The notes under the pieces were generated by a model. That model was not told where the DNA came from and did not search any database. It was given only the letters and a program-made list of their open reading frames with translations. A DNA stretch of 63,623 nt, the filler included, from Dugesia japonica (Eukaryota): NCBI GenBank assembly GCA_001938525.1. It is 6 parts of 6 records of this genome, joined end to end, with 100 filler letters (N's around TTAATTAATTAA, not from the genome) between each part and the next. Parts side by side here need not be neighbours in the genome. Positions count along the whole stretch, not along the records: positions 13,650 to 27,349 come from MQRL01589065.1; 5 more parts are not named here. One strand, 5' to 3'. Both the position numbers and the translations under genes were made by a program. Position 1 is the first letter of the stretch. Every line of letters starts with the position of its first letter. Shown piece by piece: positions 4,381-60,517 of the stretch.

Positions 4381-4615
4381 CTTGTATCTATATTTGTAAT
4401 AATAGTGTAATTCATAATTGAAAGCATGTTATGAAGTTTTTAAACTTAACAATATTCAAATCAACGACAAAATCTGTGTCGCATAACAACCGGGTTTAAT
4501 CGTCATCATAATTTAATTACTTTAATTCCTCGTAAAATTCTATGTTCACATTTTGTTCGACAGTAAGAAAGCAATTAAAAATAAAATATATTATAATGTA
4601 AACAGATAAGTTGGA

Positions 4616-5150
4616 TCACACAAATGTCTCAACAAAAATTTCTTCTTCATACAACGGAATCAATATTTGTTGTAATGTGGTCTCTACTTTAATAAACAAT
4701 CGATCCAACATCTTCGAATATTCTTCCGCCTCGATCTGTGTAGAACGTAACTCCTGTATTAGCTTTTGTTGCTGCTGAGCCAGTTCTGTAGAGCGAACGA
4801 GCAACGCCACTATTTCCTTTTTGCGAGCCTCTTATTCTCCTGCCAATTCTATGATTCGGTTTCGATAGGTTCGTTCCTGGGTATCTACACTTTTTTGTAG
4901 ATAATCAAGCATTGTTAACTTATGCCGAAGAGTCTCTTCCTGTCGTGAAACTTGCTCTTTCAGTTGGGTTATTTGAGCATCTTTCTGCTTGAAGCGATAT
5001 TGCACAATCCACCACGGATCCGCTTCTGTGCCCTTGGATCCAAGAAAAATCCCACAAATTCGACATACTGTTACATGGATTTGCCTGGAAGGAGCATCCT
5101 TCGGCTCCCAACGAATCTCTGGCCGTGGTATTTGTTATGTGTCGAGACAT
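4616..5150 (-). pseudogene. Frameshifted coiled-coil ORF of ~175 codons (module of row 1)
   Basis: ctag|ATG at 5150; after one frameshift reads ..WWIVQYRFKQKDAQITQLKEQVSRQEETLRHKL..*..ELAQQQQKLIQELRSTQIEAEEY, joining track ORF 4616-4810. Confidence 0.55.
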
Positions 5151-5749
5151 CTAGATAGACATAAATATATATGGATGAATAATATTAGGATATATGACAC
5201 TATAATCTATACATTGAGTTAATTTAATAATAATATAATACTTTTCGTAGGTGGATAATTTATCAGGTTATTAAGTGAACAAGCTATGGATAACTCGTCA
5301 TGATAGAAGGAGTTAGATCTTCTTCATACAGCATGGGCATTTTATAATTTATCATAAGCTGCATCTTTTCATAACTCTTCATTCGTTGGAGGTTTCATAT
5401 AAATCTTTATTCATTAGATGTTATCCCTTCAAAATCTATTTCCTCCTTCATAACGAATGGTCCTCCTGCTAGCTGCGTTATCATATTAAACTTATAAATA
5501 AAGAAGTATCAAATCATATTATAGGAATTATTAAGTTAGGTAAGAAAAATATTTATAATATTAACAGTATTAATATAAATGCATGACTAAAACAATAAGG
5601 TTCAATTATAATTGGACATCGACTTAAAATTTTCACTACAAGTACAATCCTAATAGCACAGTACAATAAGCAATTAACTAAATAACATAGAATTCAACCA
5701 CCACATATCTAATTTATTCGCATTTACTTCTTTACTTCCTCGTCTTTAA

Positions 5750-5970
5750 CCCTCATAAACTTTTACATTTCGTAACCATAATCATTTCATATTTCGTATC
5801 ACTTCATAATCATTTACTACCTCATAATCATCTCGTATCACTTCATAATCATTTAATATCTCCTAATCATTTTATATCTCGTGATAGTTAACATCTCTTA
5901 TAAGCATTAACATCTTCCATAAGCAATAACATCTTTCATCAGTATTCACATCATTCATAAACATTAACAT
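5750..5970. repeat. Degenerate ~20-bp tandem repeat
   Basis: Recurrent CATAATCATTT / CATAAGCATTAACATCT units. Confidence 0.6.
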
Positions 5971-6329
5971 GCGCTCTTTTGAATATGTAAACCATTTTAC
6001 GGTAGTCTTTTAAAAGTTCAGACTTTTTTAATATGAAGTTTTAAAAAAATGCATTTTTGCAGCAAACCATTTGAAGTTTGAAATATTATTCCTAATAATA
6101 TAGGCGATTTCCTATAACTAACAATGAAAATATTATAAAAAGCTCTTAAAACTAAGAAATTGTCTATTTTAAAAAAAGCCTATGACTTAATTGAAACAGT
6201 TTAAATACCCGGAAACTGTATTTTAAAATTATTTTAATAAATAATGTGAAGTTAAACATTTTTATACCAAGGTTTATTCATGAAATCGTTTTCAAATTAA
6301 GCTTAAGGCGCATTTAACAGTTCTGTATG

Positions 6330-7750
6330 ATTTATATACCTTATCATAGCATTTTTTTAAAGGTTTCCACAGACTCACAATGTGACTTTTTTTCATTAGC
6401 CATTCTAAACATTCTTTCTCTTATTTCTTTTGTAGGTGATTTGAACTCTTCTCTATTTATCAAACTGTTTTTGATACGAATTTCTTTAGATTTTTGGGAA
6501 ATGCTTTTTAATTTTGACCAGTCTGTGGGATTTCGAACAACAAACCAAACTGAAGACCATTCATAACTAATAAAACTATTTAGACTTTTAAGATCTTCAT
6601 TATCTACATTAAAAAGTATTTCAGCCATTAAACAATAAATAGCTTTTGAATTCCATCTGGATGAACATACATTAAACGGAATTTGTGGTATTTTAATAAG
6701 TAGTTTATCACCACTTTCTCGTAATGTCCGGATTCCTTTACAAAGTTCAAACAAATACCGATAGTCTTCTCTCCTATTTTCTAAATTAGGAAGGTCAACG
6801 CAGAATATTGGGGACAACTTTTAAACTTCTAAATATTTTTTCTGCAATTCAAACCATTTGGATTTGATTTCATTTACAAAATGGTATGTTTTATTCGGTC
6901 CAGCTGATTTTTCAGTTTCTAGAAAATAATTTATATTCTTCTTTCTCACTAAATCTGTGAGATCTATTTAAAACCATTTCGCTCTAGACTATATGGAGAT
7001 ATTAATAATTTTGATTACACCATTTCGTTTGATTATGATTGTTGTTCGCAATCAAAAAAAATAATTTCAATGTCATATCTCTGAAAAATATTCAAGAGCA
7101 ATGTTGCAATTGTACCTGCTTTTTTATTTGAAATTTCAGTCAATTCTATTAAAGACAAACACATATCATCTCTCTCTTAGAACAATAAAAATCTGATTGT
7201 GTTTAATATCTAAATACATAAATTTAACAAATCCATTGAGTGGAATAATCTTGGACAAATTAAAAGTATCCTTTCTAGTCACCACTGATAAACCACTTAT
7301 TGAAGAAGCTGATGAAAGTTCTTTTAAATATGCGGATTTTGTTTTGTAGAAGTTCATGATTGCTATCGTTTGAAAAATACCAAGATTTCCAATTTCTCTC
7401 AATTGCTCAGAAAATATAATATTTCTGTTTTTGATGCCATTGTCTATATCCATAAAATCTCTATCATAATATTCATCGTCATAAATTTCTTCAAAGCCAA
7501 TTTTCTTTTACTACTATTGCTGTTTTCAAAGAGTTTCATATCATTACTTTTTTTAATGTAAACGTCTCTTTTTTAACCGATGTATTTGCAAATCGAATAT
7601 TGTATACTAGTAATATCCACCTAATTTATACTTTTGGTTATAATAATATTGCTCATCCTCTTCAGATTTCCAAGTGTGTTTTGGTGGAAGACAATCAAAC
7701 CAAGCACCATTATTAGACAGTTACCAATCTTTTAAATTGGTGTATATGTG
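6330..7750 (-). pseudogene. Degenerate DNA transposase, probably hAT (hATm-like)
   Basis: CSSRWNSKAIYCL in ORF 6344-6817 resembles the RW..KAIY signature of hAT-type transposases; broken upstream frames 7166-7453 and ~7600-7710. Confidence 0.45.
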
Positions 7751-12689: not shown

Positions 12690-12846
12690 GATTTATTTTA
12701 TAATTACAATTATTGTGAGAGTAAATGTTGAACTTAACCATTGATCGCATTTGAGATTTCATTAAAATAAGAAAAAGCTTCGATCAAAATAAAATTTATT
12801 TGTTAAAAGGTTCAAATTTTCGATAATAGTCTTCTTCAGATATTGG
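12690..12846 (-). repeat. Copy of short hammerhead-bearing (Penelope pLTR-like) repeat, degenerate core
   Basis: Matches 57995-58157; minus strand CTGAAGA-agactattatc-GAAA. Confidence 0.65.
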
Positions 12847-13649: not shown

Positions 13650-16600
13650 TTTTAGCGGATGGATGGCAACCAGAAGTGTATGGCAAATTTGAAGTTGAGT
13701 ATCAGGGGAGAACAGTATCGCATGAAATGACAGTATTGAAAATGAGTGAGGATTGCATATTGGAAACGGATCTAATTCTATTATTGATGAAAAATGTAGT
13801 TTTGGATATGACCACATTGAAAATATTGAATTCCAGAGAAAATTTATATATGAAGGATAATGAAGTATATACAAACGAAAAATTGGTGATACCGAGGAGG
13901 AGTCAAGTATTTTGTATTGCGAAAACCCAAGCAAACTGTAAAGAGGATATGAATTTTGAACCACATGAAGGGTTCTCAAAGCGATATAAATTGACCGGCG
14001 AGGGAAATAGTAAAATTGTCTGACGAAGGAAAAGTGCCAGTCAACGTACTGAATATGACAGAAGAAGATATTACGATATATCCAAATTCAAAAATCGNNN
14101 NNNNNNNNNNNNNNNNNNNNNNNNNNNNNNNNNNNNNNNNNNNNNNNNNNNNNNNNNNNNNNNNNNNNNNNNNNNNNNNNNNNNNNNNNNNNNNNNNNNN
14201 NNNNNNNNNNNNNNNNNNNNNNNNNNNNNNNNNNNNNNNNNNNNNNNNNNNNNNNNNNNNNNNNNNNNNNNNNNNNNNNNNNNNNNNNNNNNNNNNNNNN
14301 NNNNNNNNNNNNNNNGCGTGGACAGACAATGAATTAGGTACGTGTGCGGTGACAAAACATTCAATAGTATTAACAGACGAAACACCAATAAAGTTGCGAA
14401 CTTACAAACAAGCCGAAGCAAACCGAAAGATCTGTGAGGATAAAATTGACGAAATGCTAAAGTGTAAAGTAATCGAGTCAAGTTGTTCACTGCGGTAATT
14501 TCCAGTGGTATTGGTGAAAAAGAAAGATGGAACCATGAGATTCTGTATCGATTACAGACAACTAAATGCNNNNNNNNNNNNNNNNNNNNNNNNNNNNCCA
14601 GACATTAACGATATGTTAACGTTATTATATAATGCAAAGATATTAACGACATATGATTTGCAGAGTGGATATTGGCAAATCAAAATAGAGGAAGCAGACA
14701 AAGAGAAAACCACATTTTTAGCAGGCAAAGATTTATATCAATTTGTGCGAATGCCNNNNNNNNNNNNNNNNNNNNNNNNNNNNNNNNNNNNNNNNNNNNN
14801 NNNNNNNNNNNNNNNNNNNNNNNNNNNNNNNNNNNNNNNNNNNNNNNNNNNNNNNNNNNNNNNNNNNNNNNNNNNNNNNNNNNNNNNNNNNNNNNNNNNN
14901 NNNNNNNNNNNNNNNNNNNNNNNNNNNNNNNNNNNNNNNNNNNNNNNNNNNNNNNGACTTATTTGGGGCATCTGATATCAGACAAAGGAAAACAACCGGA
15001 TCCGACGAATATCGAAAAAATCAAGAATTTACCTGTGTCGATAAACGTGAACTACATTCAAGTGTTACTAGGAATGGCGAATTATTATCGAAAATTTATC
15101 AAAAGATTTGCGACAATCGTGAGACCTATTCAATCACTAGTGAAACAAGACGTAAAATTCATTTGGACAGATGAGCATCAAAAAGCATTTGAAACAATTC
15201 TAGAAAAGTTAATGACGGCACTGATATTGGTACAACCAGATTTTAGGAAATCATTTAGACTTGCAACGGATGCAAGCGGTTACGCAATGGGTGCAGTATT
15301 AAGTCAATTAGATGAAGAAGGACGAGAAAGAGTGATCGGATATTTTAGTAAAACATTNNNNNNNNNNNNNNNNNNNNNNNNNNNNNNNNNNNNNNNNNNN
15401 NNNNNNNNNNNNNNNNNNNNNNNNNNNNNNNNNNNNNNNNNNNNNNNNNNNNNNNNNNNNNNNNNNNNNNNNNNNNNNNNNNNNNNNNNNNNNNNNNNNN
15501 NNNNNNNNNNNNNNNNNNNNNNNNNNNNNNNNNNNNNNNNNNNNNNNNNNNNNNNNNNNNNNNNNNNNNNNNNNNNNNNNNNNNNNNNNNNNNNNNNNNN
15601 NNNNNNNNNNNNNATTACAAGCAAATAGAATAGCCAAATGGGCGATGAAGTTACAAGAATATGCACCGCTGGTCAAATACAAAACTGGAAAAGCAAGAGC
15701 AAAATTTACAGACGAACCAGAAGAAGTGTTAGAAAATAAAGCAGCCAGGGGTGAATGGATAGACTTACAGCAATTGATGAATCGAGACATACGATCTTTA
15801 TGTATGATATTGGCAGAGAATAAAGATTTTACCGGATTAAAAAAGGATCAGTACTAGGACGAGGAAGTGAAAATAATACTAGAGTATATATCTCACTTTG
15901 ACTTGAGTAAAGTGGAGTGTAACAAAGCGATTAAAGAACACTTAAAGAAACGAGGTGGTAGATATACCATGGTAAATGAGTGGTTAATGATGAAGAAAGG
16001 TGATCAACTATTATTGGTAATACCAAAATGTAGACGAGTAAAAATACTTGAGCAGTACCAAAATGGAATTCTAGGAGGTCATATGTCAGCAAAGAAAACT
16101 GAATCAAAATTACGAGCTAAATATTATTGGCCTCANNNNNNNNNNNNNNNNNNNNNNNNNNNNNNNNNNNNNNNNNNNNNNNNNNNNNNNNNNNNNNNNN
16201 NNNNNNNNNNNNNNNNNNNNNNNNNNNNNNNNNNNNNNNNNNNNNNNNNNNNNNNNNNNNNNNNNNNNNNNNNNNNNNNNNNNNNNNNNNNNNNNNNNNN
16301 NNNNNNNNNNNNNNNNNNNNNNNNNNNNNNNNNNNNNNNNGGCATTTGCATTAAAGGATCAAAAAGCGTCGACAATCGCCAGAGTATTAGTCGATAAGTT
16401 ATTCAGTCGGTATGGACCACCGAAAACGATATTGACAGATCAAGGAAAGAACTTCATGAGTGAATTAATGAAAGAAATGACTAGTTATTTTAATATTCAT
16501 AAAGTACGGATATTGGTGTATCATCCACAAACGGATGGAATAACGGAGCAATTCAATCAGACATTGACTAGAATGTTATCGAGTTATGCGACGAAATTCC

Positions 16601-17510
16601 AGAGAGATTGGGACAAACATTTGAATTTGTGTTTANNNNNNNNNNNNNNNNNNNNNNNNNNNNNNNNNNNNNNNNNNNNNNNNNNNNNNNATGTACGGTC
16701 GAGAATGTAATATGCCAATAGATTTGGAGCATCAGCCACCGATATCGCAGTACATGGGCGAAGATGATTATGTTACTGGTATGAAAGAGAGAATGCGAGA
16801 AATATAGAAATTGGCAGCGTTAAATGCGAAATTTAATCAAGAAAGTTATAANNNNNNNNNNNNNNNNNNNNNNNNNNNNNNNNNNNNNNNNNNNNNNNNN
16901 NGAGAACATCCCGCAACAAAAGCTTCACCTTTTAAACTTATGTACGGTCGAGAATGTAATATGCCAATAGATTTGGAGCATCAGCCACCGATATCGCAGT
17001 ACATGGGCGAAGATGATTATGTTACTGGTATGAAAGAGAGAATGCGAGAAATATAGAAATTGGCAGCGTTAAATGCGAAATTTAATCAAGAAAGTTATAA
17101 GGAATTGTATGATCGAGAAACAAAGCCCCGTACGTTTAAAAAGGGTGATATGATACTGATTAATACATCAACAATTGAAATTGGAACCACAGATAAATTA
17201 AAACGACCAAACAAAGGACCGTATTTAGTGTTAAAAACAACTGCAAAAAATCTAAAAGTAAAGGAAGTTGGAAAGCCACTCAAGAAGCCAAGTATTGTTC
17301 ATGTATCGAAATGTAAACTAGCAACAACCCAAGACGACAATGATAAAGAAAGCGATGAGGAGACTGTTGAAAGAGTGAGACGAGTCAAGGTCAAGCCAAA
17401 AACGGAGGACAGTGACGAGGAGGTCAAACAAAACTTTAAAAAGACAAAAGGAGTTAGTTTCAAACCGAGATTAATTGATGAGGAGAATCGATACCCAATC
17501 AGGTCCAGAC
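13650..17510 (+). pseudogene. gypsy pol: protease end, RT, RNase H, integrase
   Basis: VLVKKKDGTMRFCIDYRQLN; DLQSGYWQI; YLGHLIS; LATDASGYAMGAVLSQ; GGHMSAKKT..YYWP; TDQGKNF..YHPQTDG; GPY motif; C-terminal RYPIRSR. Confidence 0.95.
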
Positions 17511-20500
17511 AGCAAATAATGATGATAATGGGGAAAACAATCAAAGCGGTAGACGTCAATGTGAGTACATGCAATCAGAGGAATCTAGTCTTGCGATGTA
17601 AAATATGTCACTGTACAAGTTCTATTACAGTGCCATTAAATAAAGTGCTTATGAGCAAAATATGTTTTCACTGTTTACAATCGATTTATGATAACTTAAC
17701 GTTGATGGAGAAAAGTGTCAAACGAGAATCATTACAAGAGGATAGGAAGGAACCCAATCGTTCCACATGTGAATAATGTAATGAAATAGCGTTCAAACAG
17801 AAAGTAGACTCGGACTTATATCAGCAATGGTGTAATAGTTACCTGTGTAAGGCTAAAGGAATTATTGACAATGAATTGGAGGGCTTACATGTACATATGA
17901 GAGGATCAACAGCAGCCAATTCTATTAGACGAGATATAGAATTAACTCATGACGAAATTTTACAAAAATTCAAATTAAATGATCAATTAAAAATTTATGA
18001 AAATAGACGAGATATGCTTAATCAATATTATTCTTCAGTGACGGACGACTGGAAGAAAGGAAATCGAAAATGCGACAATCCAAGATGTGGACGATATAAC
18101 ATGAAAGGACTAATTCCCCAAATTCAGACAACGATAACGGGGGAAATGGTTACGATTCACTAGAGGAAGTGGTAAAAAGCGGGATGATGGACTATTGTGA
18201 ATTAAGCGGACGACCACCGCATGCAGAGTAGGGGGATACACCAAAAATCACTAAATTAAAGGATGCTGTATGGGAGGAGTTTTTGACACAACAAAAGAAG
18301 TATGAAGCAGAGAATAGTCAGAGAGTCAAAGCTGAGGAAGACGATATATTTAACGCAGAGACGATAGCTATGATGAGAGCGTATTTTATAGATAGTGTTG
18401 ATTCCAACAGCCGTACTAGAAAAGATTAAGGCGTGCGGTGAAGGATGTTATCAAAAATGGATCCAGGAACATAAAAAGGAAGGAAAACCGAGATTACCGG
18501 AACATAAAGACAAAAAGACGCCCGGAGAGCGGCCAACGTCAAAAGAGGAGCGAAAAAGAAAGGAAAAAAATAAGGAAATAGAAACTGCAATATTATTAAC
18601 AGTAGAAAGAGTATTGCGTCGTGGAATGGACATACCTAAAGAGAAAAAGTTGGAAATGCAAGCGTATTATCAAAGGAGAAAACGCAAATGGTGTGCAGAA
18701 CGTCCAGGAGAAAAGTTTCCCACGATACGGGATGGGTATAGGATGGAGAGATGGCCGAGAGATCAAGAACTCCAAAAGTATCATGAACGAGAGTATAAGA
18801 GAATGCGGTGTGCTTTACAAAAAGCTAGAGGAATATTTAAAAATTGAGGAATCGTACAACGGAAAATCTCTTATCGAACAAGATTGCGAAGAGCGATTCA
18901 TAAGAAGTGAAGATATGGTAATTGAGTACCAGAGAATAGCAGATGTGTATCCACATCCATTGTTGGTAGAAGAGAGTGAAGCGATGAAAAAATAATACCT
19001 ACAAGCAATGCAGCGTAAAGCAAAACAAGAAAAAGAACAGGATTCGAGCAAGCGCCAAAGTCAAGTGGAGATGTGGAAATAAGAATGGGGCAAACAATTG
19101 CAAAAATGTTATGGAATCACGGAACCAGAAACGAAAACTAAAACGCTAAAGGAAGCAGAAACATTGAACTTTTGAGGGATTATTGAGGACGACACAAAAG
19201 ATAATGACAAAGTTGAGGACGAGATAGTAGTAATTGGAATGATGGACCTTAAGGGCAATGTCCTGTTTGAGATGCCTTTTACACCTGAGTTAATGAAGGA
19301 GATTAGAGCAATTCAAGAAAAACAAGAAGAAAGAAAGGTTGGAACAAGACAATATGAGTGTGGAGTGAAAAAGAATCAAATAATAGAACAAGAAATTAAC
19401 TTAGTGATGGAACAGGCAACGATTAAAGAACCGAGTCGAGGAACTCCGTTACCAGAACCACCACAAATGGAAATGACACGTCAGAAGGAAATTATGTATA
19501 CCCGATGAAGAAATCCGAATCACAGGACCCTGTTTACGAAAATGAGTCAGGAGATCTAAAGGTGGAAACAAAGAGGACATACTTCTTACCTACAATCAGA
19601 ATTCGGGATTATTCGAAGCCAACAGAGAGTGTAGTTTTTACTACTACCACTATATTCATGTGTTCTATTCTACGCGTGACCGGTATGAGCCAGTCTGGCT
19701 CGGATTCAGAGGCAAATGTCAGAAAAAACGGGCGGGGTATATCTCGCAAGTCTGGAGAATCGAACTACGGGGAGTGATGGGAATTCAATGGAACCGGTTC
19801 CCATTAGGTATATGGAGACAGCACGCCACCTTACGAAAAGAAGAGTGGCCTATGATGGATATGAAAATGCGTATAGTAGACAAAGAGATGCAGAAGTTAC
19901 GTTCCAAGGGTCACGTAGAAGAAAATGGTTTTTTCGGATTAAGCAATATCAGTCTTTAACATATTGGATGCAAGACGGGATGTTACAAGAATATAGATGG
20001 GAACGTAACCAAAACGAAATGATAATGAAGCTTAATCAAGAAAATGTGGAGTGGTTAGAATTAGAATATATATTATTAGACGAGATGCCACCGAGCAACA
20101 AGGCAATAACCGTCAAACCGACGACAAAAGGGAGAACAAAAGCGAAAACCTACTTAAAGACGGCAATGGTCAAGTCAACAACAGAGAAGTGGAGGACGAG
20201 GGTGTATTCAAAAATGACAACGACAGCGATAACAACTATCATGAAGAGAGGTACGACAGAAACCAGTGTACAAAGTAAAAGGAGGAACCATATGATGACG
20301 GGGTATGCGAAAACGACAACTGAAAGTGAATCAACGAGGAAGCCATCGAATGTATTAAATAAACANNNNNNNNNNNNNNNNNNNNNNNNNNNNNNNNNNN
20401 NNNNNNNNNNNNNNNNNNNNNNNNNNNNNNNNNNNNNNNNNNNNNNNNNNNNNNNNNNNNNNNNNNNNNNNNNNNNNNNNNNNNNNNNNNNNNNNNNNNN

Positions 20501-20714
20501 NNNNNNNNNNNGTGGTGGAGTAGCGGGCGTCATTACGATTATCATGATGACGATTATAACAATATTAATTTGTAAAGCGAAACGAGGGCAGTATTCGAGA
20601 CTGCGTTTGGAACCGGAATTAAGAGAATTGACAGCAAAATATTTGCATCCGCCAAGAGAGTTGGTGCGATCGGGAGTTCCAGAGGGAGGAACTGGGTTGC
20701 TATGGAGTTATTGA
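17511..20714 (+). pseudogene. Decayed ~1000-codon extension of pol: Cys-rich part, charged helical region, putative ectodomain, Thr-rich stalk, TM helix and short tail
   Basis: In frame with integrase; CxxC pairs (CKIC, CFHC, CE*C); 17060 and 17876 ORFs share a frame across one stop; TM GGVAGVITIIMMTIITILIC followed by KAKR. Confidence 0.6.
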
Positions 20715-20930
20715 GGAGAATAGTGAGAGTGAAGTTGTAAATAAATTTCCTGAAATTTAACAGTAAGGTACACAATTTAGTTTTGAGTAGCTCNAAATGT
20801 AAAGTAGAGCATAGCTGATTAAATTGAAATTAAAATGTGAATTAGTTGAATAAATTTGAATTTTATATGGATCACTATAAAATTTATCGTAGTATTTAGT
20901 TAGTAAAGAATGGAACAGAAACAGATAACA

Positions 20931-21425
20931 ATGAACGGACAACTAGCAGTAAATGTGGATCTAGACGACTTCGACAGAGCAATTACGGAGGAACCATGAC
21001 AAACGTATACCCAGATGCTTAATCAACTTTTAAATCCTTATTTTACAATGGAAATTTTGTGGGACGAACACTGCCGAAGCGTAATGAGAAATTCAGATAT
21101 GTTAAACGAGCAACTTCAACAGACACGACAATTAAACGCAATCCTTGTGGAGAATGTAAATTTTCATGTGTTGCAGATACATCGACTGAATAAAATAGTA
21201 GAGAATCAGAGACGACAGATTACCGAGAATCAGAATTTTTACCTACAAACTTTGAGTGGAACTAACAAAATAGTAGAGGATCTGAGACACCAAGTGGATG
21301 AGTTACAAGCCTATAATGCAGAGCTTATTCTATCCGGAATTAATCGACTACCGAGCGTATCCGCCATCCTGAACACTATCGAGACGAGCGAGAGGATGTG
21401 GTATCGAGAAGAGAGTAATGTATGA
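20931..21425 (+). CDS. Accessory coiled-coil ORF (one internal stop upstream of 21015)
   Basis: ATG at 20931 in frame with track ORF 21015-21425; heptads IVEDLRHQVDELQAYNAEL; AATAAA at 21518. Confidence 0.6.
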
Positions 21426-21588
21426 TAAAAGGTGCTAAAACGTAGAGTATTGTAAAGTATGTGTGTTAAATAGTAACTGTATTACTATTCAAAAAAAATC
21501 AAAAACAGTAAAAGTATAATAAAAGTAGAGTGGCAATTATATTTATTTAATCAGTGCGTAATCAGAATAATTCCAATTTGTATATAGA

Positions 21589-21809
21589 ATGTCTGAAGAT
21601 TTTCAAAGGCTGTGGAGTTGTGGGGTGGAGACGATCACGATAGAGAAGTCAAGTTTGGAACAGAAATCAATCGCAGAATTACAATTTCGGTATTAAATTT
21701 ACCTTGTGAGCATGTAGCAGTTTGTCAAAAATGTCACCAGAGAAACGAGTTTAAGCGATGTGAAGTGTGTAAATGTCCAATAGAGGAGTGGCATGTGGTG
21801 TATTTATGA
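21589..21809 (+). pseudogene. IAP/MDM2-type C-terminal RING finger (C3HC4_3-like), first CxxC missing
   Basis: LPCEHVAVCQKC..RCEVCKCPIEEWHVVYL*; tatag|aATG upstream but out of frame; TGTAAATAAA at 21828-21837. Confidence 0.75.
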
Positions 21810-21996
21810 GTGGAATACCCGGTAAATTGTAAATAAAAATAAAATCAGGAAACAGTACAGTAAAAGTAACAAAGGAAGCAATATTAAAACAATTGGTACA
21901 TATCAGTCTCAATTAAAAGTTGAATTATCAGTAACTCCCAATATCTTAATATGTAGATATTCCATATTATGATTTACGTATATTTCAATTAAGAGA

Positions 21997-22984
21997 ATGG
22001 CATCCAGATATCAGAAAAGTATGAGTCGACAACGAGTGCGATCAAAAGATATTTTGAGAAAAGTAATTCCATCAACAATGACAACTCCCGTCTATATTAC
22101 TAACCGAGAACACAGGAAAATAAAGCGAGTGAACAGCTACGCGGTGGCGAGTCGCCGAAATTACAGTCAAATATACTTGAAATAGAGGATCAGGTTGATT
22201 CATGTTGCAGATCAAGTTGAATCAATCCAAATCCAATCCCCAAGGTCACGATGAACCATTTGATGAAATAGAACAATCCCGAGCTCAGTGGAAACAGGCA
22301 TGTTTAGCCAAAGAAGAGAAAATACATCAACTACAACTGGAATTGTCATCCATGCAAAAAAGACATCTAGATCAGGTCAAAGAATTAGAAACGGAGATCA
22401 AGTGGCAGAGCAAGAAAATAAAAATGCTCGAGAAAACCATGGAAAATAATAACGAAATCAGAATTGTGAATCAACGAACTCCCCAAGTGAAGACGAATAA
22501 ATTGCAAGAAGAAATCGATCAATTAATAAAAGAAAGTCGAAACCAACAATCGCAAAGAGAACAAGATATGATCGAAATTCAAAACCTAGAAAATGCCGTA
22601 AAGCATCTGCGCGATGAGAATGTTCTCTTAAAGGAAACTCCTATTCGAGTAGTAATCCCTCCACGTCAAATTAAAACTACAAAGCGAGAACAGACCTTTT
22701 ATACCTATAAAATCAATGGGCGATCAGTAGCCCCACAAATCAGCTTATTAGACCAAAGAGCGAATCATAAAAGAAAAGATCAAGTGTCTCAATTTTCCCG
22801 TCAATTTCCCAATTCTCAGTCCAGTCAATCCAGCCCATCCTATCCTACGACTTGGACAAATGAACAATCGCAATGGCCATATTCAGCGTCCGAAGAGGAT
22901 CTGTTCAAAAGGTTAAAAATCTGGTTAAAAGGGAATAACTGGACTCAGAGAACTCGGAAAAAGTTCGGAAAAGAAAATTCATAA
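21997..22984 (+). pseudogene. Accessory long coiled-coil ORF with basic N-terminus and S/Q/P-rich tail (frameshift near 22185)
   Basis: aagag|aATG at 21997; heptads EEKIHQLQLELSSMQKRH..LQEEIDQLIKE..IQNLENAVKHLRDENVLL; AATAAA at 23058. Confidence 0.6.
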
Positions 22985-23196
22985 GCAGAACTAGGTCATA
23001 AATAATGACGGAGATTACATTATTGATTAACTTATTATGGTAAAAAGAAATGTTCTCAATAAAGGTTTTAAATTATTAAAAAATCGCCGAAAATTATGTT
23101 ACAACTTAATTACAAATAATTATAATCTGACTTTTTTCTTGTTAAAATGAATCAAAAATCTACATTATTTTTCGTTTTCATAATAATAATTAGTAA

Positions 23197-23620
23197 AAGA
23201 TTGGAAAGTGGTATATTGAAAAGTTAAGACGCAATTGTATTCGTCGTTCCAGATTCAATGAAGGCGTTCAACCATTAACTACGTTCAAGATCTCAATACC
23301 CACAGAAGTGAAATTTAATTCTTATGTCACTGCGGATAACAATCTCCTAGTTGCAGATATTCCATCTACTCATGACATTCTAAATCAACTACTAGCACCA
23401 AATTTAAACGATGTAAATGTTGATGATGACAACTTTATTGATGTTCTACTCGATCTGACTATTCACGACCGCATGTGAATGGTGGGCGAATCTACGACGT
23501 CTTTTGGAAACATTGAATGAAGTCCTCACAATTACCACGAAATCTAGAACTACGGAGATCACAGAGTCTGATTGCGATGAAGCCAAGGACAATGAGTCTG
23601 AGATGGAAGATCTAAATTAG
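23197..23620 (+). pseudogene. Fourth accessory ORF, acidic, decayed (absent from ORF track)
   Basis: Stop-free frame KIGKWYIEKLRRNCIRRSRFNEGVQP..DVNVDDDNFIDVLLDL to 23478; acidic tail in a shifted frame ends TAG at 23620. Confidence 0.45.
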
Positions 23621-39369: not shown

Positions 39370-39859
39370 TATAAGTATAATATACACATAAATTTTAACA
39401 CAAAAGATAATCCAGTTGCACAGAAGTCTAGACGATTATTTGGAGAAAGTTTTGATGTAATACAAAGGGAATTCGATCGTCTTCTGAAAGTTGGAATAAT
39501 TGTCTCTAGAAACCACAAGTGGGCATCGCCATTGGTTGTCGTTAAAAAACAAGATGGGTCGTGGATGCCTTGTTGGGATTACAGACAAATTAAATGAACA
39601 AACCATACCAAACAAACAGCCTTTAACTAGAATCCAAGATCTATTGGATAATATTAGGGGCTCACCATTTTCAGCAAAGTAGACCTTCAAAAAGCATTTC
39701 ACCAGATACCGATAGCAAAAAAGGACATTCATAAAACTGTGGTTATTACTCTATTGGGTTTATATGAATACTGCAAAATGCTATTTGGATTGAAGAGCTG
39801 CTCAGCTATTTTTGAAAGATTTATGGATATAATTCTGAGAGAATATGATAACTTTGAGA
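39370..39859 (+). mobile_element. Decayed gypsy RT fragment (different family)
   Basis: WASPLVVVKKQDGSW, DYRQ, SKVDLQKAFHQIPI, GLYEYCKMLFGLK. Confidence 0.88.
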
Positions 39860-40099
39860 NNNNNNNNNNNNNNNNNNNNNNNNNNNNNNNNNNNNNNNNN
39901 NNNNNNNNNNNNNNNNNNNNNNNNNNNNNNNNNNNNNNNNNNNNNNNNNNNNNNNNNNNNNNNNNNNNNNNNNNNNNNNNNNNNNNNNNNNNNNNNNNNN
40001 NNNNNNNNNNNNNNNNNNNNNNNNNNNNNNNNNNNNNNNNNNNNNNNNNNNNATGTTAAAATCTTTATAAAAATCTTTCAAAAGATTTTGAAATTTGGG

Positions 40100-51849: not shown

Positions 51850-52025
51850 TAAAATTCCTGACGAAGACAAGGTCAAAATATCGATTTGTTATCCAATATA
51901 AATAATTAAAACCTAAATTTTGATCTAAGCTTTTATATTAAATGAATTCTATAAAACGATCAATGGTTAAGTCCAACAATTATTCTCGCAATGATTGCAA
52001 TTGTAAAATTAATTTTATAGTTTAT
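51850..52025 (+). repeat. Copy of hammerhead-bearing short repeat (core G12 mutated)
   Basis: aattc-CTGACGA-a-gac-aag-gtc-AAAA-ta-TC-gatttg plus the same downstream body as 57995-58120. Confidence 0.8.
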
Positions 52026-55424: not shown

Positions 55425-55545
55425 ATTATTATCAAAAACAAAATAAAAATTTGATTGAAGCTTTTATTTTAATGAATTCTGAATAACGATCAATGGTTAC
55501 GTCCACCAATTATTCTCGCAATAATTCTAATTGTAAAGCAATAGT
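55425..55545 (+). repeat. Truncated copy of the same short repeat (no hammerhead core)
   Basis: AAGCTTTTATTTTAATGAATTCT..ACGATCAATGGTTA.GTCCA.CAATTATTCTCGCAAT. Confidence 0.8.
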
Positions 55546-57993: not shown

Positions 57994-58265
57994 GTTTTAC
58001 AATTGCAATTATTGTAAGAATAATTGTTGGACATAACCATTGATCGTTTTACAGAGTTCATTTAAAATAAAAGCTTCGATCAAAATTGTTTTTTTGCTTT
58101 TTTTTATTGATATTTGATAACAATTCGATATTTCGATCTTGTCTTCGTCAGAAATTGAATTTTTTTCAAGTCAATTCCTGACAAAGACAAGGTCAAAATA
58201 TCGAATTTTTATCAAATATCAATAAAAAAACAAAAAAAAATTTTGATTGAAGCTTTTTTTAAATG
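57994..58265. mobile_element. Short hammerhead-bearing element with inverted arms, inserted in the PLE endonuclease
   Basis: Flanked by AATATTAC(T)ATT duplication (57982 and 58266); ~100-bp arms inverted about ~58164. Confidence 0.8.
58121..58157 (-). ncRNA. Minimal type I hammerhead ribozyme (second family)
   Basis: CAAUUU-CUGACGA-a-GAC-aag-AUC-GAAA-u-AUC-GAAUUG; mirrored, core-mutated copy on + strand 58172-58208. Confidence 0.75.
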
Positions 58266-60184
58266 AATATTACATTACCACTATATCGACTATGCTCTTG
58301 AATTCTGGTGCAGATATGACGGGAAGTATCTCTAATGTATGTGGCGTTACACCAATTACATTTAAATTGATAGACCAGATCAGAGCACAAGTCTAAAAGG
58401 GTTATAGATGTATTATTGAACATATTTATAACCTTATGAAATTGAGATACAACTTTTATATTTAAAATATTCTTAAGAGCATTTTCAATCGAAAGTTTGA
58501 ATTTTTTAGGCCTTCAGAATAAGGTAAAGATAAAACCATTTTAGGTTCTGTTTCTACAACCTCAGATACATTAACACGAGACAAGTCACTATTAAGTTTA
58601 TTCAAAGTTTCATAAACTAATTTATCCGTAAACAATTTAGAATACCCATCATTATGAAGTAAGTCAGTTAATTTTTTAGACTCTTGTCTGCTTTGATAAA
58701 AGTAGGAAAGAGACCAATAACGATGAATTAGTCCTTTAATCATATTACTTTTATATTTTATGTCACAAAAACTTGCGGGATTTGTAAACAAACCAGTATC
58801 AGTTTTCTTTCTATATATATCTGTTTCAAATGAAGTATTCTTTCTTTTAATAAGCAAATCAAGAAAAGGAATAGTTAAATTGATCTCATCTTCAACTGTA
58901 AAACCTATACTTGGATGCAAGCTATTAATATACTCCAAAAACTTGAGTGATTTTCAAAAACAAGGAAAACGTCATCGACATAACGTTTATAAACTAAAGG
59001 TTTAAAAAAAGAATAATCATTAATCTTAATCTCTAATTTAGACAAGAAAATAGAAGCTAATGTTGAAGCTAATGGGGATCCCATCACCACACCATCAATC
59101 TGTCTATAATATTCATCATTAAAAAGAAATTGAACATTCGATGTTACAAAAGTTAAAAGATCATAATCATCCTGTTTTATCCATGATAAAAGCAGCTCAA
59201 TATAAGGTTGCCAAACTGTTGGATGAGCTTATTAAGCCTTTACATAAATCTGAATTTGAGTGCCAAGAAAGTTTTGAATTTTCTTTTATTTCTCAGTATC
59301 CATTGGCTAGTAATGATTGCTTTATCGTCTCATTTGATGTAACAAGTTTATTTACTAATGTTCCATTAAAAGAAACTATAGATTTATGTTGTGAAATATA
59401 GAGTGATTTTAATCCTAATAAATCTTCTGTAGGTGATATAGCGTTTCATGATCTTTTATCTTTTGCAACATCGAATGTTCAATTTGTTTTTAATGATTTT
59501 AATTGGCGGGAAATTTAAAAAAAATTTTTGGTTTGAAATTTAAATTATTTTTTTTGTCGGTAAATTTGAAAAAAACTTTTCTTTATCTTTTTCGATTAAT
59601 TAATTAATTATTTAATTAGTTTAAATTATAATTAATTATTTTCATGCATTGTTTCAGAAAGTCTTTTTTTCCCTCCATACCATAGCATTACCTCCTCCGC
59701 CATACAACAGTCCAACAGAACGAATCCATTAAGTTCAGATAGCACACAATCGAGTCCGTTCATAATTGAATTTATCGACCAGCTTGCGCAGTTCTGACTA
59801 AGCTAAGCTCGATTTACAGTATGTGCATCTCCGGTAGCAGTGTTTCTATTCGTTTACATTCGAACATAAATTGAACCACGCAACAATTGTTTAAAAACAA
59901 TTATCGACTAGACGTAAAGTGGTAAAGAATTATATCGCAACTGTTACTTATTCAATGCATGTCATATTTATATATTATTTCGCACATATTAGACATCTTT
60001 GTCTCATTTATTTTGACCATATTAATGGAAACTTTTATCATCATAGACGTATTACTATGGAACTTTCAAAACATCATAGACTATATTACCTTGGAACCTT
60101 TAAACATCATAGACCATATTACTATGGAACCTTGAAATAGCACTTACCTAAATTTCAAATTATATTAAACTAACTTAAAAAATT

Positions 60185-60367
60185 ACATAAAATATTTAAC
60201 AGAAAAAAAATAAATAAACCCACCATTTTTAATTTCTAATACAATTATGGTATTTTGAAATAAAAAATCAATAATTATATTGATTTTTTAAATTTCATAA
60301 TACCATAATTGCAATTAAAATAAAAAATGGTAGGTTTATTTTTTTAACAATGTTAAATATTTTATGT
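60185..60367. repeat. ~180-bp AT-rich palindrome
   Basis: ACATAAAATATTTAACA..AATTATGGTATT..AAAAAATCAATA mirrored about ~60276. Confidence 0.8.
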
Positions 60368-60517
60368 GTCATAAATATTTTATGTCAAGATAATATTTTA
60401 ATTTCATAATACCATAAATGCATTTGAAATTAAAAATATAAAATACTAATTTATATTACCATAATTGTAATAATTACAATTATGGTAAGATGAAATTAAA
60501 CAATCAATATACATACA

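Follow-up and report, generated by a model that had tools for sequence, protein, structure and literature searches.

The question raised by this locus is whether a retroelement in the genome of Dugesia japonica carries a working ubiquitin-ligase gene of its own, or only what is left of one. The window, which here means the whole 63,623-nucleotide stretch of DNA that was analysed, consists of six pieces joined by five contig spacers and is AT-rich, with a GC content mostly of 0.2-0.35. The original prediction had described the interval 21589-21809 as a retroelement-borne RING mini-gene of the IAP/MDM2 type. This interval is not one ORF, as the frame opened by its ATG stops at 21696 and the frame that encodes the RING has no ATG. 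Our best explanation, which we consider probable, is that 21681-21809 represents what remains of a small accessory E3-ligase gene without a BIR, a gene which has lost its front and which lies in a decayed Ty3/gypsy element. The copy in the window is likely to make no working protein.

The RING reading frame

On the + strand the frame 21597-21809 reads ...LNLPCEH-VAV-CQKC-x8-CEVC-K...WHVVYL*, with six of the eight zinc ligands in IAP-like spacing and without any CxxC ahead of the PC. The recognisable sequence, comprising the C-terminal portion of a C3HC4 RING of the IAP type and the stop codon, was delimited by Pfam, by a profile of relatives and by a table of residue registers to 21681-21809 (+). 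The 42 residues encoded there include ligands 3-8 (at 21705, 21711, 21723, 21732, 21759 and 21768), a Lys at the linchpin place and, at C8+11, the Tyr of a hydrophobic VYL* tail, which falls in the register of cIAP1 Phe616. The ligand count, the missing first CxxC and the dimerisation-class tail had all been read correctly in the original prediction. The PCEH-x3-CQKC-x8-CEVC motif did not arise by chance in any of 100 Markov-resampled windows, whether the pattern was applied in its strict or its loose form. The Pfam check that had been proposed, against zf-C3HC4_3 (PF13920), came out with a match that spans model positions 13-48 of 49 (E 5e-6), and with 26.7 bits it narrowly missed the gathering score of 27. 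Comparison of the frame with the Atlas returned RING clusters at 0.89-0.93.

The RING frame is open for 28 codons upstream of the point where homology starts (21597-21680, +), and this front has no likeness to the relatives and is of low confidence in the structural model; no ATG was found in the frame downstream of its bounding stop (21594-96). It is a different frame, of 35 codons (21589-21696, +), that starts with the ATG at 21589. By eye the peptide of this ATG frame had resembled the start of the relative P0027, and this candidate was rejected: the BLASTP E value was 0.42, equal or higher scores were obtained in 781 of 2000 shuffles and with 3430 of 24399 window peptides, and comparison with 14 relatives gave no significant likeness. 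The predicted model of the 70-residue RING frame is of low confidence (mean pLDDT 51; residues 1-29 below 50). The best Foldseek matches obtained with this model were RINGs over ~41 columns, and IDOL was the top match in both fold searches, with no match reaching E <= 0.001.

A BIR domain, whose absence had been noted at the outset, was found neither by Pfam in three frames each of 17057-20365 and 20796-23152 (read through with X) nor by a motif scan of 13650-23150, the 5' part of the element being outside the contig. The nearest upstream CxxC is a lone CKVC at 21451-21462 (+), in another frame than the RING and with an in-frame stop 15 nt before it. An A-rich 37-nt direct repeat (21491-21527 and 21832-21868; 73% alike, 341 nt apart) has one unit following the lone CKVC and the other following the RING stop. 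The RING tail also has a weak tblastn match (E 11) at 21492-21548, a hint that an old tandem duplication may have taken place.

Relatives of the fragment and the class of its RING

A phmmer search of 1.84 billion representatives gave 12 matches, five of which were RING proteins, and P0001, P0002, P0004, P0006, P0008, P0009 and P0011 were dropped as unrelated repeat proteins; a profile search added seven further clusters (10 matches among 191 candidates). The relatives amount to 35 of 42 collected proteins in 12 clusters, with a motif-screened set of 33. They are small unnamed proteins of about 70-179 residues without a BIR motif, and most have a helical front; the AF2 model of P0027 has a mean pLDDT of 83.6. 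In all 33 screened relatives, which stand for 12 clusters and not for 33 independent cases, the first CxxC lies 9-10 residues before the PCxH. A UBA domain in the front of the relatives was not borne out; the likeness to the cIAP1 UBA was weak and non-significant (6.7 bits).

A profile of 11 relatives, from which the window was left out, matched the six window frames at 21681-21806 only (44 bits, E 6e-13), and the likeness begins abruptly at 21681. No match to the front part of the relatives was seen upstream of this position in any frame, and a profile of their pre-RING part gave nothing in 20800-21720 (best 1.4 bits). The closest relatives are P0003, P0027 and P0007, which are identical to the fragment at 21, 20 and 19 of 42 residues and have the EWHxxY tail in common with it. 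The Tyr at C8+11 is present in the window and in all 11 tabulated relatives, and six of these 11 agree with the window in having Lys as the linchpin residue. The group formed by P0003, P0007, P0010 and P0027-P0033 (70-176 aa, from Logan and ENA contigs), with identities of up to 21/42 and the same tail, differs from the fragment in that all of its screened members have kept the first CxxC and the start codon. Word-index searches among proteins of 38-123 and of 124-2000 residues found no close match to the 70-aa RING frame, and none of P0010, P0027 and P0029 was found in viral contigs. A context search with the relatives also led to two loci in metagenome contigs, of which L001 was rejected as bacterial and unrelated; on this bacterial contig, 852-1907 and 4450-6366 are eukaryote-like RING-containing ORFs without relation to the RING fragment.

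When the relatives' profile was compared with the PDB, the top 10 of the 21 matches were cIAP2, cIAP1, XIAP and BIRC7, followed by IDOL, MGRN1, CGRRF1 and MUL1, and the last three were MDM4. The E values were 2.5e-12 for the IAPs, 5e-7 and worse for the IDOL/MUL1 type and 0.007-0.008 for MDM4. The RINGs of IDOL/MYLIP, MUL1, MGRN1 and CGRRF1 are of the same Pfam family and RING class as the fragment, and are weaker than the IAPs by sequence profile; an IAP origin of the RING, rather than one from the IDOL/MUL1 type, appears likely from these profiles. MDM2 and MDM4 RINGs have the ligand pattern C2H2C4, and the fragment, with its PCEH, is C3HC4. The IAP half of the predicted label is upheld by the PDB ranking, and the MDM2 half finds no support in the ligand pattern or in the rank of MDM4.

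The RINGs of cIAP1, cIAP2, XIAP and BIRC7 (PDB 3eb5, 6hpr, 4ic2, 4auq) resemble the fragment in their PCxH-x3-CxxC...CxxC spacing and in the aromatic residue at C8+11; the fragment differs from these proteins in having no BIR, no first CxxC and no pre-RING helix, in its Lys linchpin and in a Glu in place of the loop-2 Pro. According to the excerpted text of PMC6349121, cIAP1 contacts its E2 mainly through Val573 and Met575, two residues within or directly behind the first CxxC, its linchpin is Arg606, its dimer is formed by the RING, the tail and the helix before the RING, and Phe616 of the partner tail, at C8+11 (counted from C605), props the donor ubiquitin in trans. By register the residues equivalent to Val573 and Met575 are missing from the RING fragment. 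The first CxxC and the helix are absent, and the fragment looks like the rear of an IAP-type ligase but in its present form belongs neither to the RING E3s nor to the IAPs. At least one BIR domain is what defines the IAP family; none is present in the visible part of the element, while the Phe/Tyr tail that acts in trans is.

The surrounding element and its other copies

The fragment lies 3' of a decayed Ty3/gypsy pol on the same strand, which bears out its prediction as retroelement-borne. This pol (13650-17400, +; Pfam and translations) comprises a protease-like stretch, seen by eye, followed by reverse transcriptase, RNase H and integrase (RT_RNaseH_2, E 1.5e-20; Integrase_H2C2, 2.3e-7; rve, 1.4e-5), in the order typical of Ty3/gypsy. 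In-frame stops and N runs occur within it and its 5' side ends at a contig spacer; the contig holds no 5' end of the element, with gag, any env and the 5' LTR lying outside. An exact 161-nt duplication around a gap (16691-16851 and 16940-17100) is likely an assembly overlap. Elsewhere in the window there are two more reverse-transcriptase remnants, at 1730-2497 and 39658-40059, the first with RNase H, as well as palindromic repeats at 58057-58267, 60185-60367 and 60276-60511, with partial copies at 12691-12790, 51853-52013 and 55434-55545; no tRNA genes were found in the window.

The integrase is followed by ~6 kb of broken coding sequence on the same strand, and the RING fragment sits within a row of small ORFs. 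The first part is a broken coding extension with Cys-rich and charged stretches and no Pfam family (17400-19660, +), and the second is an ORF whose translation shows, by eye, a Thr-rich stalk and a C-terminal hydrophobic segment (19689-20714, +; no Pfam match), and whose product is likely a single-pass membrane protein. Over 17400-20714 as a whole, the ~1100 broken codons after the integrase contain Cys-rich motifs and match no Pfam family in any + frame; no RNA data set was listed as containing 17000-20360, which has no bearing on expression. Next come a small coiled-coil-like ORF with one in-frame stop and the deepest coverage (20911-21425, +), for which the Atlas gave no named family, and, downstream of the RING, a broken coiled-coil-like ORF (21990-22984, +). 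Shortly after the RING stop, repeat comparison identified a motif containing AATAAA (21824-21845, +), probably a 3'-end signal, which has 13 of 14 nt in common with 20732-20745, after the membrane-protein ORF; its 11-mer core occurs twice on the + strand and once on the - strand of the window. The probable 3' end of the element is TGTTACA at 23097-23103 (+), as suggested by the drop in depth from about 2200 to 21, a single-copy level, across the surrounding bins in run X1. Neither a second LTR copy nor a clear PPT was seen within the window.

Other copies were addressed by aligning public contigs from four runs of three studies to 20800-23200 at 80% likeness. The RING core is repeated and multi-copy in the four runs, and is much rarer than its flanks at this likeness. 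In run X1 the summed contig depth, which is not copy number, was 14,000-51,000 on 20881-21609, 930-1,470 on the RING core 21610-21771, 10,355 on 21772-21852 and 21 beyond 23149, and the other runs had the same shape. The region 20881-21609 is covered 10- to 50-fold deeper than both the RING core and the bin just upstream, and could belong to a long LTR that is present in many solo copies. Joints within contigs connect 21669 to 21685 in three of the four runs, 21683 to 21785 in two and 21596 to 21783 in two; these are single contigs at low depth among the 32 listed of 6337 pieces, and the joints are defined by their positions alone. The start of homology and these joints together place a probable break zone at 21669-21685 (no strand assigned). 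This pattern is consistent with copies that diverge from the window at the point where the RING homology starts, and the truncation may be common to a sublineage and not private to the window copy. In the neighbouring ORF, the 14 listed near-fixed differences, a small and selected sample, are split 4/4/6 on codon positions 1/2/3.

Origin and possible role of the RING gene

Loss of the front from an accessory ligase gene, the reading preferred here, is supported by the coincidence of the contig joints with the start of homology, and the window copy is decayed throughout, with in-frame stops in pol and in the flanking ORFs. Loss to decay, which had been offered as one fate of the first CxxC, is the likeliest one. 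The intact ancestor would have been a protein of ~110-180 residues with a helical front and a complete RING, like the relatives, and may have been expressed from a short transcript of its own, to judge from the second occurrence of the post-stop motif behind the membrane-protein ORF. Such a protein would be expected to dimerise through its RING and tail and to hold E2~ubiquitin closed in the manner of cIAP1. It could have ubiquitinated host proteins, most likely regulators of cell death or defence, by which the host cell of the element would be kept alive; without a BIR, its targets would have been reached through the helical front or through pairing with a host IAP RING. In the cross-brace scheme of RING domains, zinc site 1 is formed by ligands 1, 2, 5 and 6 and site 2 by ligands 3, 4, 7 and 8. 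The window copy would accordingly have site 2 whole and site 1 half gone and, even if translated, could presumably not recruit an E2. Several points weigh against this explanation: no intact copy of the element family was present among the proteins searched and no trace of the missing front came to light; the relatives are candidates and not proven retroelement cargo, with none of P0010, P0027 and P0029 found in viral contigs; the joints come from single contigs at low depth; the truncation may belong to a sublineage; and the linchpin is a Lys instead of an Arg.

A fragment that was dead on arrival, template switching having brought in no more than the 3'-terminal part of either an IAP-type mRNA or a gene from another element, would also have a sharp 5' edge and no remnant of a front part. 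The much lower depth of the RING core compared with the upstream ORF and the contigs that jump from 21596 to 21783 in two of the four runs would suit such an origin. We nevertheless regard it as unlikely, since the deeply covered copies (21772-21852 in run X1) have the final codons and the 3' motif as well, and a second ORF of the element is also followed by the post-stop motif; the shared 3' flank and the recurring motif suggest a resident gene that diverged and not a late insert.

The original prediction had also allowed for a first CxxC supplied by an upstream exon, in which case the spliced mRNA would encode a whole RING. The CKVC at 21451-21462 is an apparent candidate, being the word that opens the cIAP RING and lying ~240 nt upstream on the same strand, and one of 20 frame-compatible GT-AG pairings does yield a loop of 9-10 residues; one canonical loop is, however, what would be expected by chance from 20 pairings over loops of 9 to 48 residues. 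The splice acceptors are purine-rich, the stop ahead of the CKVC closes its frame, most of the depth in run X1 (22186 of 25186) has a 2-nt gap relative to the window inside the CKVC-frame stretch, and all of the collected relatives are single ORFs, all of which makes a spliced gene improbable.

A selected half-RING decoy, produced by a truncated sublineage from a non-AUG start or by slippage, would pair through its tail with host IAP RINGs and poison or retune them. The 42 codons that remain unbroken in an otherwise decayed copy, the retained tail Tyr and the 28 open codons upstream of the homology would agree with this, although 42 stop-free codons are unremarkable. Similarly, none of the 40 listed differences (of 465) falls in 21610-21809 and one run X8 contig spans 21690-21888 with two other letters, but the list favours deeply covered places. 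With no in-frame ATG, with zinc site 1 half absent and the helix ahead of the RING, by which cIAP1 dimerises, missing as well, and with a structural model of low confidence, the working dominant-negative decoy that had been predicted is in our judgement quite improbable. Finally, an assembly error which joined two copies near 21680, so that the truncation would not be real in the genome, is very improbable: the five contig spacers, the 161-nt duplication beside a gap in the element and the want of any contig among the 32 listed pieces that bridges 21680 in the window's own form would allow it, but all bins are covered in three of the four runs (29 of 30 in the fourth) and there is no N near the break.

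The remnant of an accessory ligase gene finds its nearest parallel in the planarian Burro elements, which carry BIR, RING-type and BCL2-like motifs (PMC6431247). Giant Burro elements are characterised by a gag-(BIR, BCL2-like, env)-pol polyprotein and by a length above 30 kb; the contig studied here begins inside pol. In the excerpted text of PMC13465017, a second-hand account, the BIR plus RING region of Burro1 (B-IAP) is reported to guard stem cells against death driven by caspases. Burro1/GYPSM1 and the element described here are both of the Ty3/gypsy type, contain a large amount of additional coding sequence, carry an IAP-type RING among it and reside in an AT-rich animal-like genome; in B-IAP, however, BIR and RING are in one gene, whereas here the RING is cut, startless and BIR-less and is found 3' of pol among small ORFs. 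Any effect on apoptosis or defence would be argued from homology and from the analogy with Burro1. Gypsy-type LTR retrotransposons of bdelloid rotifers have likewise acquired ORFs downstream of pol, and coiled coils or membrane segments occur in some of these; in the excerpted text of that work (PMC5408684) RING, ubiquitin and apoptosis have no whole-word occurrence. The excerpted text of PMC13524379 mentions no RING and those of PMC13238120 and PMC8532177 contain nothing on RING cargo; across literature listings and abstract openings no BIR-less RING ORF in an LTR element was found, although the primary Burro papers may describe one.

A broader and rather speculative proposal, which we consider unlikely, is that of a gypsy family with a row of 3' micro-genes, perhaps in a long LTR, that includes a BIR-less RING gene in whole and truncated sublineages; those forms that are expressed would associate with host IAPs by means of the conserved tail and adjust cell death in the cells in which the element is active, a second and minimal route to a host-element bargain of the Burro1 type. 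IAP cargo in a gypsy element has already been reported for Burro1; the present case differs in that the BIR is lacking and in that the RING lies 3' of pol. If true, a BIR-less version 3' of pol would mean that such elements keep the ligase half alone, and would offer a small test of RING-only action on host IAPs. Being broken, the copy in the window is of value less for new biology than as a pointer to a gene family that deserves to be catalogued. P0003, P0007, P0010 and P0027-P0042, all on short public contigs, form a family of small BIR-less proteins in which a helical front is combined with an IAP-type RING (ILYLPCGH...Y tail).
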